Shown here: one piece after another, positions 3,207-57,273 of the stretch
Numbering within the stretch: the stretch's first letter is position 1
Layout of the letters: every line of letters begins with the position of its first letter
IMG/VR virus record: IMGVR_UViG_3300031951_000015
Location: 96,001 to 160,000 of that record
Length of the DNA stretch: 64,000 bases
Direction: 5' to 3' (one strand)
From: a virus
Translations under genes and position numbers: made by a program
Notes under the pieces: generated by a model
Database searches by the model: none
What the model was told of the DNA's origin: nothing
What the model saw: the letters and a program-made list of their open reading frames with translations, nothing else

Positions 3207-4823
3207 TTATGTTACCACATTATAATTTAACTGAGAATATAAAACATAAAAATTATCAGGATTTGCAGAGTTAATCAAAGGAACATCAGATAATGCTCCA
3301 CTTGTCAATGGAACATTTGCTTGTTGATTAGCATTATTTGATGATTTAATCATTGTTATTGATGGTTGTGGTTCTGGCAACTGACCAACCTGTGTTGGTG
3401 GTTTTGCAGGTGGTGTAACTTCTGCTGGAGATGCTACAACAGCATCTGGCAATCTCATTTCGGACCAATTGTATCCTTTAGATGCTGCCCAAGATTTTGC
3501 TTGTTGCTTTTCTTCTGGAGTCATTTTACTCCATGCATCTTCAATTCTCCCTCTTGCAAAGGGATTATTTCTATATTGCCATGCCTGTTCAAATTTTGAA
3601 ACCATTTCTGGACTTGGAGCAGATGGCATCATGGTAGTTTGTGGTTGCACTGCAGCAGGAGCAGGTGCTGGTGCGGCCGCAGGTGCAGGTTCTGCTGCTG
3701 GTTTTGGAGATTCTTTTGGTTTTTCTTCTGCTGCTGGTTTTAGAGATTCTTTAGGTTTTTCTTCTGTTAAAATTCTAGTATTTGTTTCAGTTTTTCCAAA
3801 AAACTTATCATAAATTTCTTTTCCAAACTTTTGACCTGGACCATATGCAAGAGCACCAGAAATAAGTCCTGTTCCTGGAATAGGTATTAAAGATCCTAAA
3901 CCAAAAGCGGCAGCAGAAGTAATCATACCGCTCGTGGCACCTGCAACTGCTCTGGCAGGATTTTCTCCTCCAGCAATGTCAAGTCCTGTCATCAATGCAC
4001 CAATTGCAATATTACTTCTTACATTAAGACCACTACCAGGTTTTGGTCCAGCAGGTTTTGGTCCAGCAGGCTTTGGACCGCCAATACGAGGGAGTAATGC
4101 TGCTGCAATTGCTAAAGGTTTTGCAATTAATAATCTTGTTAATCCAAAAGCAATTCTACCAATTGTATTTTTAACAATCGAAAATCCTGCACGAATTGCT
4201 AGTAAACCACCACCAATGATTGCAAGATTTTTAATAATATTAAATTTAATATTATTAAAGAGACTTGTATTCTTATCTTCAGATGCTTGTATTGCTTGGA
4301 CAACTTGATTTGTTAACCAACCACCAAATAAAATTCCAAGTGCAGCACCAATTCTACCAAAGACATCATCTACCTTTGGAGTTAATTTCTGAACTGGAGT
4401 AACAAGAGCATTTTGTATCTTTTGCTCTAATTCATTCTCTTTACCAATTCTAACTTGTTGTTCTGCTAATCTTCTTTCTTTCTCTTGTTCTGCTCTTGTT
4501 CTAGATATTTCTTCAGCATTATCTTGTTGGAGAAGTGTTGCAATGCTTGCAAGACCTGTTCCTAACTTACCAATATCAGATCTTAATGCTTGAATATTAG
4601 AATTAAATCCTAAGAGTGCTTGCTCTTGAGACTGAATCACTCTAACATTCTGGTTATCAATTTCTCTTTTTCTATTTTCAGATTCTATTAATTGATTTCT
4701 GAAAACAGATTGATCAATTATTGATTTCTTTAAAAGTGCATTTCTAACTTCTTGAGACAGAGGAGATCCCGTGCCTGGATCTATTCCAGATCTACCAACT
4801 TTTTCGGGATCTAACTCAGCCAT
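3207..4823 (-). CDS. tape-measure-like / ejected virion protein
   Basis: Coiled-coil N-terminus, Gly/Ala hydrophobic helices, Pro-rich tail; lies directly downstream of gp26/gp51. Confidence 0.5.
   Translation of the reverse strand: MAELDPEKVGRSGIDPGTGSPLSQEVRNALLKKSIIDQSVFRNQLIESENRKREIDNQNVRVIQSQEQALLGFNSNIQALRSDIGKLGTGLASIATLLQQDNAEEISRTRAEQEKERRLAEQQVRIGKENELEQKIQNALVTPVQKLTPKVDDVFGRIGAALGILFGGWLTNQVVQAIQASEDKNTSLFNNIKFNIIKNLAIIGGGLLAIRAGFSIVKNTIGRIAFGLTRLLIAKPLAIAAALLPRIGGPKPAGPKPAGPKPGSGLNVRSNIAIGALMTGLDIAGGENPARAVAGATSGMITSAAAFGLGSLIPIPGTGLISGALAYGPGQKFGKEIYDKFFGKTETNTRILTEEKPKESLKPAAEEKPKESPKPAAEPAPAAAPAPAPAAVQPQTTMMPSAPSPEMVSKFEQAWQYRNNPFARGRIEDAWSKMTPEEKQQAKSWAASKGYNWSEMRLPDAVVASPAEVTPPAKPPTQVGQLPEPQPSITMIKSSNNANQQANVPLTSGALSDVPLINSANPDNFYVLYSQLNYNVVT
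3690..3765. repeat. 36-bp tandem duplication (EEKPKESxKPAA)
   Basis: ttctgctgctggttttXgagattcttt.ggtttttc occurs twice in tandem. Confidence 0.7.
4039..4079. repeat. 15-bp tandem repeat (GPKPA)
   Basis: ggttttggtccagca twice, plus a degenerate third copy. Confidence 0.75.
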
Positions 4824-17727: not shown

Positions 17728-19143
17728 TTATCTTAGTTGGTAACCATTGATTGTAAATCCATATTGAGCACCACTACTATCTCCTATTAAACCAGTGTTT
17801 CCTCCATTTGATCCGCTGATAACCATTGTAAACGAAGATATGGTTTTTATCTCTCCAAGATTTGTCTTTCCTTGATAATCTGGAGTGTAAATGTAGGGGA
17901 ATTGAGTCCCAGATACATCGTTGATATAGAAATAACCAGGTTTTGGTGCTGTTGCTGGACCATTACCAGTAATCCAAGAAACTTTCAATGCCTGGGCACA
18001 CATGGGTGTTGCCAAAGCAAATCTCCAAGCAATAGTTGTCCAACCAGATGATATTTCATAATATCCACCAGCTAGATTAGTTGCACTCCCACCCCAAGCA
18101 GTAAATGGACCACCATTTATTGAATACGTTATACTACTACCAGGAATAGGTCCAGTTGCAGTGGTGCATGATAGTGGTGAATCTGTTCCAGTTAGATAAG
18201 CAACAATAACTCTCCCAGATCCCCCACTACCTCCGGAACCGCCACCACCACCGCCACCAGATCCGGTGTTTGCAACTCCGTTACCACCGGTGCCGCCATG
18301 ATTTCCTACGCCACCGCCACCAGATCCACCACTAGAACTTCCTACCCTAGATGCACCTCCGCCGCCGCCAGCAAAAAATTGAGAAGTTGGAGAGAAAAAT
18401 GGAGTTGCGTTTAACCAAGAAATAGGTGTTGTAGGAAGACCTGCGCCACCAACACCAGGTTGATCTGGTTGTCCTTGGATTCCTGCCCCACCAGCACCTC
18501 CTCCTCCACCACCTCCGAACCCGGGACCCCCTGAAGAGGAGGGTCCACCTTGATTTCCCAATCCGAAGATATTAGAATTAGTGGGTAATGCTGGATTGTT
18601 AACTTGATTTAATGGAGATATTGAATTGCCATATGTTCCACCAGGAGAACCACCTTGAGTTGTAAGTGGACTTGGTGTGTAATTTAATCCTCTACCTCCC
18701 CCCTGAGCAACCCAATCAGGTCCAAAAGTTGAATTGCTACCATTTGAACCAGGTGAATTAGATAATGATCCTGAACCTCCAGCACCTCCTCCTCCCACAA
18801 CAACATCATATGATCCTGAGGTTAAAGTTAAAGGTGCAATTATTACACCACCCGCACCGCCACCAGCTTGTCCACCATCACCAGGAGGATTATAAGAACC
18901 GCCACCACCACCTCCAATCAGTAATATATATGCTGCTTTTGGACCTCCAGTGGTTACAAAAGGATTTGGACCAGAACTGGCAAAATCATGATATGTATAA
19001 CTTCCTACCGTTGTTTTTGTTCCACCAGTTGCAGAAAAAGGTCCACCACCGACAGCACCACCAACAGGTGCTACATACCTCTTTCTTCCAAATCCGAAAG
19101 AAAATCCACCCCCACCACCAGTTCTTGATAAAATAGGACTCAT
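17728..19143 (-). CDS. glycine-rich (polyglycine-II) fibre tip/adhesin with extra C-terminal domain
   Basis: ATGG..YHDF..GGGGG repeats..NTGSGGGG..GGSGRVIVAY. Confidence 0.7.
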   Translation of the reverse strand: MSPILSRTGGGGGFSFGFGRKRYVAPVGGAVGGGPFSATGGTKTTVGSYTYHDFASSGPNPFVTTGGPKAAYILLIGGGGGGSYNPPGDGGQAGGGAGGVIIAPLTLTSGSYDVVVGGGGAGGSGSLSNSPGSNGSNSTFGPDWVAQGGGRGLNYTPSPLTTQGGSPGGTYGNSISPLNQVNNPALPTNSNIFGLGNQGGPSSSGGPGFGGGGGGGAGGAGIQGQPDQPGVGGAGLPTTPISWLNATPFFSPTSQFFAGGGGGASRVGSSSGGSGGGGVGNHGGTGGNGVANTGSGGGGGGGSGGSGGSGRVIVAYLTGTDSPLSCTTATGPIPGSSITYSINGGPFTAWGGSATNLAGGYYEISSGWTTIAWRFALATPMCAQALKVSWITGNGPATAPKPGYFYINDVSGTQFPYIYTPDYQGKTNLGEIKTISSFTMVISGSNGGNTGLIGDSSGAQYGFTINGYQLR

Positions 19144-26887: not shown

Positions 26888-27514
26888 TTATTTATTGGTT
26901 TGTTTAGACCATCTTTTATTGGCAGCATCACTTAATTTTTTTCTTGTTTCCTCTGTAATATTGCAAATACGTCCCAATACAAGTCCTTCAGATAGTTTTT
27001 CTTGAACTTTTATTCTCATTATTCTATGATTCTTTTTTGTTTTTGGGTCATACATCCAAACTAAATCCAGTTTTTTAAGTGTTTGTTTTCTTTTTATTGA
27101 ACTTTCTTCTGTAAAAACTTGAAGTGCTCTTGCTCTTCTAATCTTCTCTCTTGCACTTTCATTTAGAAAAAATTTACCTTTTTTAACTTTACTCATTTTT
27201 TCTTTTGTTTCTTGAGATGTAACTGCACCCTCTCTCGTAAATTTAGTCGAAGTTTGTTTTGCCCTATTAGCAAAATGTGAGTTAAGAGCAATATCATAAA
27301 AATTATGCAACTTTATTTCTGCACGAATTGCATCCTTTCTTGTTTTAAACGTTTCGATAATTACTTTTTGAGTGGGATTAAATGTTTTATCGTGAAATGA
27401 TCCAAAATAGTTTATATCTTGTTCCGGTAAGCAATTGCAACTTCTACACCCAATATACCCCCTACCCCACTCTTCATAAGAATAATAGGTATAATGATAC
27501 TTCTTATTAGACAT
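26888..27514 (-). mobile_element. free-standing GIY-YIG-like homing endonuclease with NUMOD3 repeats
   Basis: YTY..GYIG.R..YFGS..AE..N; SQETKEKMS and TEETRKKLS. Confidence 0.75.
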
Positions 27515-27549
27515 TTCTTTACCATTAGGACCGCATATGTATTTATATT

Positions 27550-27600
27550 AAAAAGGAGGGACTTACACCCTCCTCCTGATAAGATTGCGGTCCATCAGGT
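27550..27600 (-). ncRNA. putative small antisense RNA 1
   Basis: Own TAAATA promoter, CCTGAT/ATCAGG hairpin and terminator; loop complementary to the downstream 5' UTR. Confidence 0.5.
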
Positions 27601-27615
27601 ATTAATATTTATCAT

Positions 27616-36839: not shown

Positions 36840-37394
36840 TCAACTATTTATTGCTTGATGGTCTGGAAGTTTAGGAAGTAAATCAAACGCAATGATTGTT
36901 CTTTGTTTTCTCGATTGATTGGGATGAACGAAGTGTAAAGTATAAGAAGGAACAATAAACAGTGTTCCTTCTTTTACATCTTGTGGATGTGCAAGAGTTG
37001 TTGTATCAGTTCTCGGATCTTGCCAAGGTGCTACAAAGCAAGTAGGAGTATGATGTTTCGAATCATACTCCACATAAAGAACACCAGAGAATCCCCAACT
37101 TTTATGGTTGTGAACTGTCTGATGATCTCCTTGTTTATATCTCACTGCCCAACAATCAGTCATACTACAAGTTACTTGTGCTTCCTGACAGAACTCAAAC
37201 AGTTGAGGTCTGATGAGGTCTTGGAAGTAATGTAGGTATGACTTTTTATTTGTTTGGCGATCAGTCTCAAAAGTTTGAAGAGTGGTTCTTACAAACTTTT
37301 GAGAGTTGATTCTGTTGAGAAGTCCACGGCGCTTAAAGTCCCAGTCGTCTATTTGGTATTGGTATGATGGATATTCAAAGAGTGGTGCTTTCAT
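36840..37394 (-). CDS. putative 2OG-Fe(II) oxygenase
   Basis: W..Y..HNH..SGVLY..P..LHFV..R.IIAF. Confidence 0.8.
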   Translation of the reverse strand: MKAPLFEYPSYQYQIDDWDFKRRGLLNRINSQKFVRTTLQTFETDRQTNKKSYLHYFQDLIRPQLFEFCQEAQVTCSMTDCWAVRYKQGDHQTVHNHKSWGFSGVLYVEYDSKHHTPTCFVAPWQDPRTDTTTLAHPQDVKEGTLFIVPSYTLHFVHPNQSRKQRTIIAFDLLPKLPDHQAINS

Positions 37395-38182
37395 ACTGGC
37401 AATCTCCAACCACGATGATGATCTACTTCAAATCTTGATAATCTTTGCATCTGTCTTTTACTCAATCCAAAATCTTTACAATGTTCATCAATATCATCAA
37501 CTTTTACAATATTATTATCTGGCGATAAGAAATAATAAGTTTTCAATCTTGCTTTTCGGCATAACTCCCTTTGCTCATCGCTCATAATCAAGTTTGGTCT
37601 AATCGTATTTGTTATTTTAGCAGTCCAACCTTTATAATGATTTCTCTTTCCCATACAAACATAACACATAGTAGGGTTGTGTAAGTTATGTTCTAAACAA
37701 AAACTTTTCAAACTTTGAGTAATATATTCTTTACCATTTGGATCTGTAATCAAATATTCATAAACAAACTTTGTTTTTCGCATCTTATCAACGTGTTCTT
37801 TTTTGGATTTCACACCACGACACCTATCACCAACAGCATTACCAACTCTTATTTTTAATCCTTCATAAAGACGTGAGTTGCAATAATATTCTTTATCACC
37901 ACTTTTATGATGATTCATTTTCCAAAAAGCGTGAGTCATCTTTATTGTTTTTGGATGCTTTTCTCCATACCTTTTGATAAATGCTTTTTCTAATAGAGAG
38001 TGAGCAATATAATGTTCTCTGGCAGTCAAATATACAATCCTTTTGTTCCCTTCTGTTGTCTGCCCATAAAGAGATCTTGGAAAAACGTGATGTCCTTCCA
38101 CATACATTTTCACATTTCTTTTGTTGTAACCTCTTTTCTCTGCGTTTCGTATAAGGTTACAGTAAGTCCTTAGGTAGTTCAT
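37391..38182 (-). mobile_element. free-standing HNH homing endonuclease
   Basis: EGHHVFP..LTAREHYIAH..NSRLYE plus C-terminal DNA-binding repeats (HYKGW, HHRGW); inserted within the oxygenase operon. Confidence 0.8.
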
Positions 38183-38214
38183 AACTGCTCTTTGGTTGGT
38201 GACGTACTATTTAT

Positions 38215-38272
38215 GCAAGAAAAGGGCACCAGAGCGCCCCATTCTACCTGAAATGTGTCACCAACCCAGGCA
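38215..38272 (-). ncRNA. putative small antisense RNA 2
   Basis: Same architecture as 27550-27600; 10-nt complement to the HNH 5' UTR. Confidence 0.5.
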
Positions 38273-38284
38273 CTTATATTTAGG

Positions 38285-39013
38285 TCACCGGGCACGGTCC
38301 CAGGCGCAATGTGCCCTCTGCCCATCTTGTAACACGTAGTGAAAAAATATTTGATGGTAGTACAACTGTTCTTGATTTTTACCAAATAGTTTTTTACCTT
38401 TTCTATTAAGTCCTGGCATTGGATCACGCCAATGAGGTCTGGAACAACCTTTATAAACCATTCCATCACCAGGTTTCAGAATCACTGAACGATTCTCACC
38501 AGGAACTAATACCTGTGTCTTCTTTTTATCTGCATAAGTATCTGGTGTTTTAATCCAGATCGGCCAGTCAGCATCTTCACCAGTTAGATTAGTGCTGATA
38601 TGAACCGTTACAGAAATCTCACAAGCATCACGATCTGCGTGACGGGTAAGTTCTTGTCCTGGGAAATAATAACGATCATAATAATAGGTATTATAAAGTT
38701 TACGTCCCAATACTTCTTCCAGTTTCATACGAATACCACAATGGATTTGGCGATATTGTGGATGCCAATAACGAGCAAGAGAACCTTCAACTTGCATCTC
38801 AACTTCATGATGGGTGAACTGATCCATCTTTTTACCCCACCAGTTCAGTTGTCCACGCTCTTGTGGAACTGGATGATAGAGTTCCTCAGGATTCCACAAG
38901 TCTTTAATAACTAGATATCCATTCTTTTCAAAGGATTCGTTGTGAGTCCAGGCAGTACCTGTATTCATCCTTTCCTGCATCATCAGTTGCAGTTCTGTCA
39001 TTTGTTCTGCCAT
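38285..39013 (-). CDS. 2OG-Fe(II) oxygenase
   Basis: RHADRDACEISV..GD..Y.G..HWR..QIFFHY. Confidence 0.8.
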   Translation of the reverse strand: MAEQMTELQLMMQERMNTGTAWTHNESFEKNGYLVIKDLWNPEELYHPVPQERGQLNWWGKKMDQFTHHEVEMQVEGSLARYWHPQYRQIHCGIRMKLEEVLGRKLYNTYYYDRYYFPGQELTRHADRDACEISVTVHISTNLTGEDADWPIWIKTPDTYADKKKTQVLVPGENRSVILKPGDGMVYKGCSRPHWRDPMPGLNRKGKKLFGKNQEQLYYHQIFFHYVLQDGQRAHCAWDRAR

Positions 39014-39021
39014 TTTCTACC

Positions 39022-39642
39022 TCACTTCCAGCGTTTGCCAACCGTCCATCCAACAAGGGATTTACGGGTTCCTTTCGTAACTTTAAGAACTCTGTGCTGT
39101 GTGCGAGAATCAAACAGGATTACAGTGCCACGCTTACGAGGTGCAATATAACTATTACCTGCTTCATCAAGAAGTTGCAGGTTTCCACCTTCATAATCAT
39201 CGGGGTCGCTCAACTGAACCACGAAAGAAAGTTTCCGTACAAGTTCAACATTCTCATTCAGGAAGTCTTGTGCAAGACCTTCTTGACGATTACCAACACT
39301 TACGGGTTTGTATTGAGTTGCAAGTCCTGCGTCATTATGCCAACCATAAAACTGTCCCTCTTCATACTTTGTAAACTGCATTGATTCTCCATCAATACAG
39401 TGCAAGTCATAGAGGAAGTTCTCACGGTTTGCTCTTTGAATGTAATGCCATACGAATCCACCAACCCAATGTGTGGTAGGGATCCAAGCATTTTGTGAGT
39501 TTCGTTTATCTTTATTGAGTGCGTCTCCGTGCAGTCGGGAGTCCGCCATTTGCTCTTCGAACTTTTCTGTGAGATCTCGTTCGATAATATCTACTACGTC
39601 TTCTGGTAGATCACTGAAATACCAAATTGATTGAAATGCCAT
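39022..39642 (-). CDS. 2OG-Fe(II) prolyl-hydroxylase-like oxygenase
   Basis: WHND..RKLS..YEGG..FDS..HRV..R.SLVGW. Confidence 0.88.
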   Translation of the reverse strand: MAFQSIWYFSDLPEDVVDIIERDLTEKFEEQMADSRLHGDALNKDKRNSQNAWIPTTHWVGGFVWHYIQRANRENFLYDLHCIDGESMQFTKYEEGQFYGWHNDAGLATQYKPVSVGNRQEGLAQDFLNENVELVRKLSFVVQLSDPDDYEGGNLQLLDEAGNSYIAPRKRGTVILFDSRTQHRVLKVTKGTRKSLVGWTVGKRWK

Positions 39643-39665
39643 ATGTGAATAATGTATTCAGGTTT

Positions 39666-39694
39666 ATTATATATGAGATTGGTTAGAATGTCAA
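39666..39694 (-). promoter_or_regulatory. consensus sigma70 promoter of the oxygenase operon
   Basis: TTGACA-N17-TATAAT. Confidence 0.8.
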
Positions 39695-39711
39695 ATTACA
39701 GATTATACTTT

Positions 39712-40689
39712 TTACTCATACGGATTTGCATAAGAAAATCTAGTATTAAATTTCGATGAATTCCAAGCATATGTTCCATTATATACTCCACGATCAGCAA
39801 CCCCAACAGAAAAATTACTATTAATAGTTTGACCATAAGTATTGGTAGAATTTGCTCCCGATGTAGTAGTGGAAGCATCATTTCCTGTGCAGTTATAATT
39901 ATTACAATTACTACCACCAGTATAATTACTACCATTCCAAGTTCCCAAGTGAACACAATAATAAGAATCAGAAACTATTGCATCACTATTATCATAATGC
40001 ATAGTAAATAAATCATTAGTTTGATCTCTAGCTCCTACATTTTGTATTGGATTTTGAGCGATTTTAGAACTGGCATTAACACTTCTAAAAACACAATTAT
40101 AAAATCGACCCCTACTATTTGGAGCGTGAAATGCAGTCATATAATTAGTAGTTCTTGCAGTATCTCTAACTTTTTCTAATATAGCACCATAAATATCAGA
40201 TCTAGTAGTAGAATCACCAGCACTGATGTGGTGATCACGACCAGCACCAGAATTTCTAGCTCTTAAGAGAGTTTGTCCTGGTGCAGCAATAACTCTAAAA
40301 TAACTAGTACCATTATCAATGACACCAAGTTGACTAGTACTAGTATTCCAATCAATATAATGAAATCCTTTGATTACAATACATGAATTAGCAGCAAGTC
40401 CACTAGTGCCATCTACATTAAAAAGACTATAAAAAGTTCTTTTCGGTGCAGTAATAGAATTTCCAGAATTAGCATCATTTCCAAATTCAGAATCAACATA
40501 AATCATAGTATACCCAGCACTAGCACTAGAACTAATCAAAGTTTGATATGCATTTGGAAAATCTGAAAGGGAAAGTGCTCCGGCGACAGGTGATGCAGCA
40601 GCAGCACTAGCCTTACCAAACCCAAAACCACCTACACCCCTTGTGATACCTGTAAAGACAGGTGATTCTTTTTTATGATGTTCAAACAT
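39712..40689 (-). CDS. non-glycine-rich fibre tip (beta-helix-like)
   Basis: SPVFTG..GFGFG leader; IYVD..GNDANSG.S..PK.T. Confidence 0.55.
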   Translation of the reverse strand: MFEHHKKESPVFTGITRGVGGFGFGKASAAAASPVAGALSLSDFPNAYQTLISSSASAGYTMIYVDSEFGNDANSGNSITAPKRTFYSLFNVDGTSGLAANSCIVIKGFHYIDWNTSTSQLGVIDNGTSYFRVIAAPGQTLLRARNSGAGRDHHISAGDSTTRSDIYGAILEKVRDTARTTNYMTAFHAPNSRGRFYNCVFRSVNASSKIAQNPIQNVGARDQTNDLFTMHYDNSDAIVSDSYYCVHLGTWNGSNYTGGSNCNNYNCTGNDASTTTSGANSTNTYGQTINSNFSVGVADRGVYNGTYAWNSSKFNTRFSYANPYE

Positions 40690-57114: not shown

Positions 57115-57230
57115 TTTAAAAGAGTAGTAAGACCATCAGGGAAATGGTGGAGTTACTATTCCCCAGTCACCCTCAGACTGGGTATGAGAGACGTTCTTAT
57201 ACACCCATAGGTCTCGGTTAACGGGTGTTT
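57115..57230 (-). ncRNA. structured psbA leader (PhotoRC-II-like)
   Basis: Stems ACACCC/GGGTGT, CCCAGTC/GACTGGG and ACCAT/ATGGT plus a GAGAC/GTCTC pairing, directly upstream of phage psbA. Confidence 0.65.
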
Positions 57231-57273
57231 AACAATGTAACGAATTATGAGAGATCCGTAACATTTGTTTACC

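Follow-up and report, generated by a model that had tools for sequence, protein, structure and literature searches.

Among the selfish genes of large phages, homing endonucleases are the main ones; to our knowledge, how they are held in check is understood in a few T-even cases only. In the closest described systems a late promoter lies inside an inhibitory hairpin, as reported for T4 e, soc, I-TevI and segB and for Aeh1 mobE (PMC3014915, PMC2988022). Within the whole group of these masks (T4 e, soc, 49, I-TevI/II/III and segB; Aeh1 mobE), a strand of the RNA from further upstream base-pairs with the region of translation initiation, the late promoter is located between the two strands, only late transcripts are translatable, and homing endonuclease genes are among those to which the masks are attached.

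The module analysed here, cassette A, is predicted to share these traits, and the gene that it precedes is itself a MobE homologue. It differs from the T-even masks in four respects: its 5' strand is presented in the loop of a small hairpin of its own, an intrinsic terminator is predicted within the long-range loop, a second late-promoter motif stands ahead of the whole module, and the helix abuts the ribosome site with no full cover of it.

Marine metagenomes have also yielded hairpins that contain TATAAATA, are built from two complementary motifs and lie 5' of free-standing endonuclease genes (Dassa et al. 2009, PMC2677866). The likeness lies in the kind of gene (phage endonucleases from the environment, GIY-YIG and others), in a late-promoter motif in a 5' UTR hairpin, and in loci where the 3' end of the endonuclease gene overlaps the next gene; the text of that paper reports no upstream promoter, internal terminator, loop display or set of many alternative cognate pairs (PMC2677866). 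Finally, StxS is a short regulatory RNA arising from a phage late promoter that is followed immediately by a terminator (PMC7547250). The same succession of late promoter and terminator is predicted to give a short RNA in the cassette, whereas StxS depends on lambdoid PR' antitermination, acts on host targets and has no cognate downstream leader (PMC7547250).

Layout of the module ahead of a MobE-like gene

The source genome, a single contig of 174,667 bp, belongs to a T4-like cyanophage; the window is the whole stretch of 64,000 nucleotides that was analysed. Cassette A lies in a locus with 2OG-Fe(II) oxygenase genes on both sides. All the elements named in the first-pass annotation of this locus were recovered at their positions on the minus strand, and the features considered below are the following.

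38277-38284, minus strand: P1, late-promoter-like motif CCTAAATA, with TAAATA at 38277-38282 (sequence)
38247-38270, minus strand: local hairpin, with CCTG at 38267-38270, a 16-nt loop at 38251-38266 and CAGG at 38247-38250 (sequence and predicted fold)
38257-38266, minus strand: anti-leader in the loop, GGTTGGTGAC, exact reverse complement of 38194-38203 (10 of 10 positions)
38217-38245, minus strand: predicted intrinsic terminator, with an A-rich flank, a 7-bp GC-rich stem and 4-nt loop at 38223-38240, and a T-rich run (terminator scan and fold)
38217-38271, minus strand: predicted RNA of about 55 nt from P1, starting at G38271 (sixth nucleotide after the motif) and ending in the terminator T-run
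38208-38215, minus strand: P2, late-promoter-like motif CATAAATA for the nuclease mRNA, with TAAATA at 38208-38213 (sequence)
38194-38203, minus strand: target, the first 10 nt or so of the predicted P2 transcript, pairing with the loop and beginning 4 nt after the P2 TAAATA
38180-38193, minus strand: leader with the Shine-Dalgarno-like AAAGAG at 38188-38193 and the ATG at 38180-38182 (sequence)
37391-38182, minus strand: MobE-like HNH homing endonuclease gene, 263 aa (PHROG matches; tblastn to Aeh1 MobE and T-even mobE)
27515-27613, minus strand: sister cassette B, ahead of a GIY-YIG/NUMOD3 endonuclease gene at 26888-27514 (covariance-model score 79.8 bits)

The TAAATA of P1 is found 2 nt past the stop codon of the upstream gene (38285-38287). 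The motif NATAAATA is the accepted cyanomyovirus late promoter (PMC2984593). Throughout the source genome, the coding strand carries 58 ATAAATA sites and the opposite strand 8, and a long ORF starts 10-60 nt 3' of 37 of the 58 coding-strand sites, against 3 expected; judged by this sequence context, the behaviour of ATAAATA in the genome is promoter-like. A different type of element, a perfect sigma-70 consensus (TTGACA, 17 nt, TATAAT), maps to 39666-39694 on the minus strand, ahead of the 2OG-Fe(II) oxygenase gene at 39022-39642, and is probably an early promoter.

As the first-pass annotation had indicated, the loop of cassette A is exactly complementary to its own leader over 10 nt, and the target lies 4 nt past the second promoter. 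The chance expectation of a 10-nt complement in such short intervals is about 1e-4. The target sequence of cassette A is single in the genome and the arm sequences are found nowhere else; likewise, no other phage target of the loops was detected in the genome, each target being unique to its own cassette. P2 is placed between the loop strand and the target strand in cassette A and in every family member, so that late transcripts starting there would lack the 5' strand.

Specifically, the protein encoded downstream matches phrog_655 at 1e-20 and phrog_2081 at 8e-17, and Aeh1 MobE aligns with it at 32% identity over residues 1-186 (3e-18, tblastn), while no Pfam HNH model scored above threshold on the nuclease. 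The phrog_655 and Aeh1 MobE matches uphold the earlier naming of the gene as an HNH nuclease, and by homology the product of 37391-38182 is a MobE-family HNH homing endonuclease. The exact protein occurs in metagenome assemblies only; close relatives of it were not found in IMG/VR, and a megablast search with the locus gave no match among isolate phages. At its 3' end, the nuclease gene shares an ATGA (37391-37394, minus strand) with the 2OG-Fe(II) oxygenase gene that comes next, the stop codon of the former overlapping the ATG of the latter, and a GGAG is located inside the nuclease gene, 9-12 nt 5' of that ATG.

Copies of the element and covariation of its strands

Cassette B, which the first-pass annotation had placed at 27512 and considered to be built on the same scaffold, has the same layout with an 8-nt complement, and carries an additional terminator immediately 5' of its P1. 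The scaffold pattern occurs in the window at cassettes A and B and at no other place. A genome scan that required only a TAAATA and, behind it, a stretch able to pair with any sequence 5' of it yielded two more loci; a third copy of the same type is found at genome position 66390, ahead of a GIY-YIG-like gene, and a simpler relative at position 76118. Near the latter (L128, genome 75400-76300, minus strand), and also at L033, L090, L097 and L106, we observed a second scaffold, composed of a conserved two-tier hairpin with the anti-leader in its loop, then TATAAATA, and a 12-nt target directly before CAATG. This second scaffold has no clear terminator and mostly no P1, and it precedes an HNH/AP2-like gene at L128 and GIY-YIG genes at the other loci.

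When cassettes A and B were compared with isolates by blastn, Synechococcus phage S-SRM01 was the sole match, with three copies (at 17955, 48435 and 192423 of NC_070963), each ahead of an annotated endonuclease gene. At one of them (L122:1545-2246; NC_070963 192466-193167), the annotated homing endonuclease CDS starts inside the cassette, and an ATG follows the conserved leader about 53 nt downstream of the annotated start; therefore, the start given in the record is probably wrong.

The succession of P1, hairpin, terminator, P2 and leader was detected in at least 118 stretches in IMG/VR by a scan with the scaffold pattern. This pattern fixed P1, P2 and the CCTG/CRGG stem, and conservation of P1 and of the stem was thus judged on 19 copies found independently; P2 is also present in copies retrieved through protein or neighbour-gene searches. 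Of the 127 pattern matches listed, 104 have a complement that begins about 4 nt past P2 and is exact over 8 nt or more, and in most of the remaining matches listed the complement is broken by a single G-U or mismatch. The matches listed comprise 103 distinct copies and about 66 different helices; by the 9-nt core, 40 helix types are present in the 93 copies with a complete gene. Relatives of the GIY-YIG protein in IMG/VR carry a cassette with the same or a different loop, each matched by its own leader, and across the family the median score of cognate loop/leader pairs is 24.5, against 10 for non-cognate ones.

Covariation was assessed on a MAFFT alignment of the 103 distinct copies, which was not fitted to any structure. 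Compensatory changes are seen in all 11 helix pairs, with 89% of the cells paired, and the covariation score is 0.493, compared to 0.171 for shuffled alignments (0 of 500 reach the observed value) and at most 0.124 when the strands are slid. RNAalifold, unaided, picks the same loop-leader helix. The sequences of the local stem and of the terminator stem also vary between copies while their pairing is kept. Wobble pairs add little to this picture: about four independent G-U events stand against one A-C mismatch, and most of the G-U pairs derive from one conserved position. A covariance model built from the same alignment found, in the window, cassettes A and B only, and it also retrieved the third genome copy, locus L003 and new copies in independently collected loci.

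On this evidence, the complementarity of loop and leader, like the pairing in the local and terminator stems, is maintained by selection; a chance origin of the pattern was considered and is ruled out by the covariation statistics. The first-pass annotation had supposed a general modular element with cognate loop/leader pairs, and the frequency of the complement and the covariation of every helix pair bear this out; with the downstream genes and the complementarity tabulated, the pattern scan found both cognate complements and an enrichment of nucleases. As a separate observation, in L049, L080 and L092 a second, perfect 13-nt copy of the target is present in the 3' end of the upstream ORF, about 95 nt 5' of P1 (the cassette of L049 lies at position 3490); judging from its sequence, it may be the relic of an older cassette or an additional pairing site.

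In the Rfam search of the whole window, only a PhotoRC-II RNA reached its gathering score, at another site (57148-57240, minus strand; 78.8 bits, against a gathering score of 39). Over cassettes A and B, at E-values up to 10, the best scores were 10-20 bits against thresholds of 35-229, and the element fits no Rfam family, a match that had initially been considered possible. A full-text literature search for the P1-hairpin-terminator-P2 layout gave no description either. In conclusion, the initial view that the system is undescribed stands, within the literature searched, as regards the composite layout, but not as regards the principle, which elaborates the hairpin control of T4 and Aeh1 (PMC3014915, PMC2988022).

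Association with nuclease genes and with a mobile insert

The 93 distinct downstream proteins among the matches listed fall largely into two homing endonuclease families, phrog_314 (69 of 93) and phrog_655 (31 of 93); NUMOD3 domains are found in 47 of them and GIY-YIG domains in 17, and TnpB accounts for 2. A variant cassette, in L105, has another TnpB-like gene behind it. These TnpB/OrfB_IS605 genes (behind the cassettes at L074:134-251 and L083:3847-3963, on one 243-kb IMG/VR contig, and in L105) encode proteins of about 398 aa starting with MHLKAYK. From their position behind the cassette, it appears that the module serves RNA-guided transposon nucleases besides homing endonucleases. The element is thus strongly enriched ahead of nucleases and is shared across unrelated families (GIY-YIG, HNH and a few TnpB), in agreement with the original suggestion.

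This distribution bears on the hypothesis, raised in the first-pass annotation, that the 10-nt arms are inverted DNA sites bound by the DNA-binding domain of the nuclease. There is a parallel for it, as I-TevI represses its own late promoter through a homing-site-like operator (PMC2988022), and each arm of the cassette lies just 3' of a promoter motif. However, a nuclease-specific sequence, which marks an I-TevI-type operator, is not what we found: nucleases with no relation to each other (GIY-YIG types, another family and TnpB) have one and the same helix type ahead of them, and several helix types occur within 12 of 19 protein clusters defined at 60% identity or more. In addition, the arms, 45-55 bp apart, vary freely while their complementarity stays, in several copies the pairing is kept only through G-U, and the arm sequences are unique in the genome. 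With helix types common to unrelated nucleases and differing among near-identical ones, a DNA operator is disfavoured and we regard it as very improbable; pairing between RNA strands is the reading followed below.

The insertion site of cassette A can be compared with its empty form. The gene upstream of cassette A is joined to its next neighbour by an ATGA overlap, with zero intergenic DNA, in about 35 of 80 relatives, and in six other relatives a GIY-YIG cassette is found at that junction, beginning right at the stop codon, from which its P1 is sometimes built. The stop codon of the window nuclease recreates the ATGA overlap that joins the flanking genes in endonuclease-free phages. Since the endonuclease-free relatives have no intergenic DNA at this point, the whole unit from P1 to the nuclease gene reads as a mobile insert and, on this comparison of junctions, the module belongs to it.

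Orphan units consisting of P1, hairpin and terminator, with no P2, target or nuclease, were observed at L191:842-953, L134:846-959 and L164:858-955; a sigma-70-like promoter and then a 2OG-Fe(II) oxygenase gene come after each of them. The partial degeneration of loop and P1 gives these units the look of remnants left after endonuclease loss, which argues against a role independent of the nuclease. No such remnant was found at the equivalent site of the window (39630-39830).

Proposed masking in cis and the predicted short RNA

We propose that mobile homing-endonuclease cassettes of T4-like cyanophages have in this element their 5' control module, acting by RNA pairing in cis and, in addition, through a probable trans-acting RNA; for this reading taken as a whole, we put the chances for and against at about equal. 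The late promoter P1 would start an RNA exactly at the base of the short hairpin, whose large loop would display the 8-13-nt anti-leader, and the intrinsic terminator would follow directly. The late promoter P2 would start the nuclease mRNA, with its first 10 nt or so being the complement of the loop and ending 11-13 nt before the AUG. Read-through, whether it comes from P1 or from genes further upstream, would produce transcripts containing both halves; in these, the two halves would pair and the helix would extend into the Shine-Dalgarno-like AGAG, blocking initiation. Transcripts started at P2, without the 5' half, would be translatable, and the nuclease would consequently be made late and at a low level. 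The terminated RNA of about 55 nt would probably bind, in trans, the 5' terminus of the P2 transcript and damp translation further. The firing of P1 and P2 as promoters, the stability of the small RNA left by termination, the direction of the effect and the action in trans are all points that we infer from the sequence.

As regards the cis arm, the full RNA from P1 to the ATG of cassette A folds at a predicted -38.9 kcal/mol (z -3.4), with a long-range helix over the AGAG, and in the predicted fold of cassette B the helix extends over GGUA; the conserved UAG of UAGAG pairs with the helix in many copies. The target helix itself appears to abut the Shine-Dalgarno-like motif, which it does not fully cover, and in cassette A the extension over the AGAG is a feature of the predicted fold. 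Plain hairpins with TATAAATA in the loop and covering the ATG occur in the same phages. Perfect hairpins of this plain kind, of 11-21 bp and with the start codon in or beside the 3' strand, were noted at L096, L102, L104/L116, L105 and L059, and they correspond to the classical T4/Aeh1 design, coexisting with the composite cassette in one phage group. Since two overlapping genes are separated by the insert, read-through is to be expected. Judging from the folds and by analogy, pairing most likely masks the translation start in cis, and we consider this mask the firm core of the proposal because the folds contain the long helix, simple relatives exist and T4 and Aeh1 provide the precedent. One point counts against it: a helix of 10-13 bp within a loop of 13-19 nt is topologically strained unless the local stem opens.

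The trans arm depends on a short RNA, for which the following indications were obtained. The predicted RNA of about 55 nt forms two hairpins (-25.5 kcal/mol, z -4.1). In each of the 19 copies retrieved by searches that did not demand P1, this motif lies 5-6 nt ahead of the hairpin; it was also seen in 11 of 11 terminator-bearing copies examined, against at most one of about ten simple or D-type hairpins with no terminator. The predicted first base is the purine at the base of the local stem in 11 of 11 variant copies, and the local stem covaries. These sequence features, together with the additional terminator 5' of P1 in cassette B, make a separate P1 transcription unit likely. Moreover, the three cognate pairs found in the genome are predicted to gain -12.0, -7.6 and -17.4 kcal/mol on cofolding, compared to 0 to -2.5 for non-cognate ones, so that pairing in trans is thermodynamically plausible according to the model. 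In view of the way in which P1 is kept, the RNA running from P1 to the terminator would probably act in trans.

A comparable arrangement is known from IS10 RNA-OUT/RNA-IN and from type I toxin-antitoxin systems, in which a small, stable, terminator-ended RNA carries a hairpin loop complementary to the extreme 5' end of an mRNA. RNA-OUT and the type I antitoxin RNAs limit the translation of a selfish or toxic gene and travel with that gene; they are transcribed from the opposite strand or divergently. The cassette shares with them a complement to the 5' leader of its target, displayed in a loop and kept by covariation. It differs in that regulator and target stand in tandem on the same strand, and in that its RNA is a predicted one; being located upstream on the same strand, the regulator could also act in cis by read-through. 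We put forward only tentatively, and with slightly less than an even chance of being right, the idea that each mobile nuclease cassette carries a reprogrammable, same-strand tandem antisense small RNA, with dozens of orthogonal specificities, working as a trans antitoxin-like brake, which would be the first such family in T4-like phages. A point against the proposal as a whole is that, should both promoters fire together, a constant brake would bring no evident gain over a weaker promoter.

The same features can be read as a mask working in cis only, as in T4. In that case pairing would matter in read-through transcripts alone, P1 and the terminator would provide insulation of P2 or interference over it, and the short RNA would be an inert by-product. 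This is the sole mechanism with experimental precedent (e, I-TevI and Aeh1 mobE; PMC3014915, PMC2988022), and it agrees with the long helix in the full-length predicted folds, with the simple hairpins devoid of P1 and terminator in the same phages, and with the split of an overlapping gene pair, for the downstream member of which read-through transcripts must exist. Between the end of the terminator T-run and P2 there are 2-8 nt, a spacing that suits interference. However, it leaves unexplained why P1 is held at 5-6 nt from the hairpin base (19 of 19), sometimes rebuilt from a stop codon, and why it occurs only alongside a terminator; furthermore, the local stem competes with the long helix and is nevertheless kept by compensatory change. 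On balance, we judge a purely cis-acting mask rather unlikely.

The short RNA might instead have a positive effect, shielding the 5' end of the P2 mRNA from RNase E or RNase J, or opening an inhibitory fold of the leader. It has been reported that RNA duplexes shield the mRNAs of cyanophages against the RNase E of the host, which counts for such a role, as does the position of the target at the very 5' end of the predicted P2 transcript, stopping 11-13 nt before the AUG. Against this, the P2 leaders on their own are nearly unstructured (predicted -4 to -7 kcal/mol), so that there would be nothing for the short RNA to open, and in many copies the helix runs into the UAG of UAGAG, which argues for masking. 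An activating or protective RNA is accordingly improbable in our estimation, and the masking mechanism, with a damping short RNA added to it, is the one that we retain.

With regard to annotation, the module is absent from Rfam and one S-SRM01 endonuclease CDS is annotated as starting inside it. More generally, cyanophage endonucleases and some TnpB genes appear to travel with a compact, self-contained expression controller, whose specificity helix has been rewritten repeatedly. In the T4 literature, a trans-acting regulatory small RNA has not been characterised (PMC3014915). Should the short RNA exist and work in trans, that gap in T4 biology would be filled (PMC3014915), and the family would offer many natural orthogonal RNA-RNA pairs, that is, a library of riboregulators.
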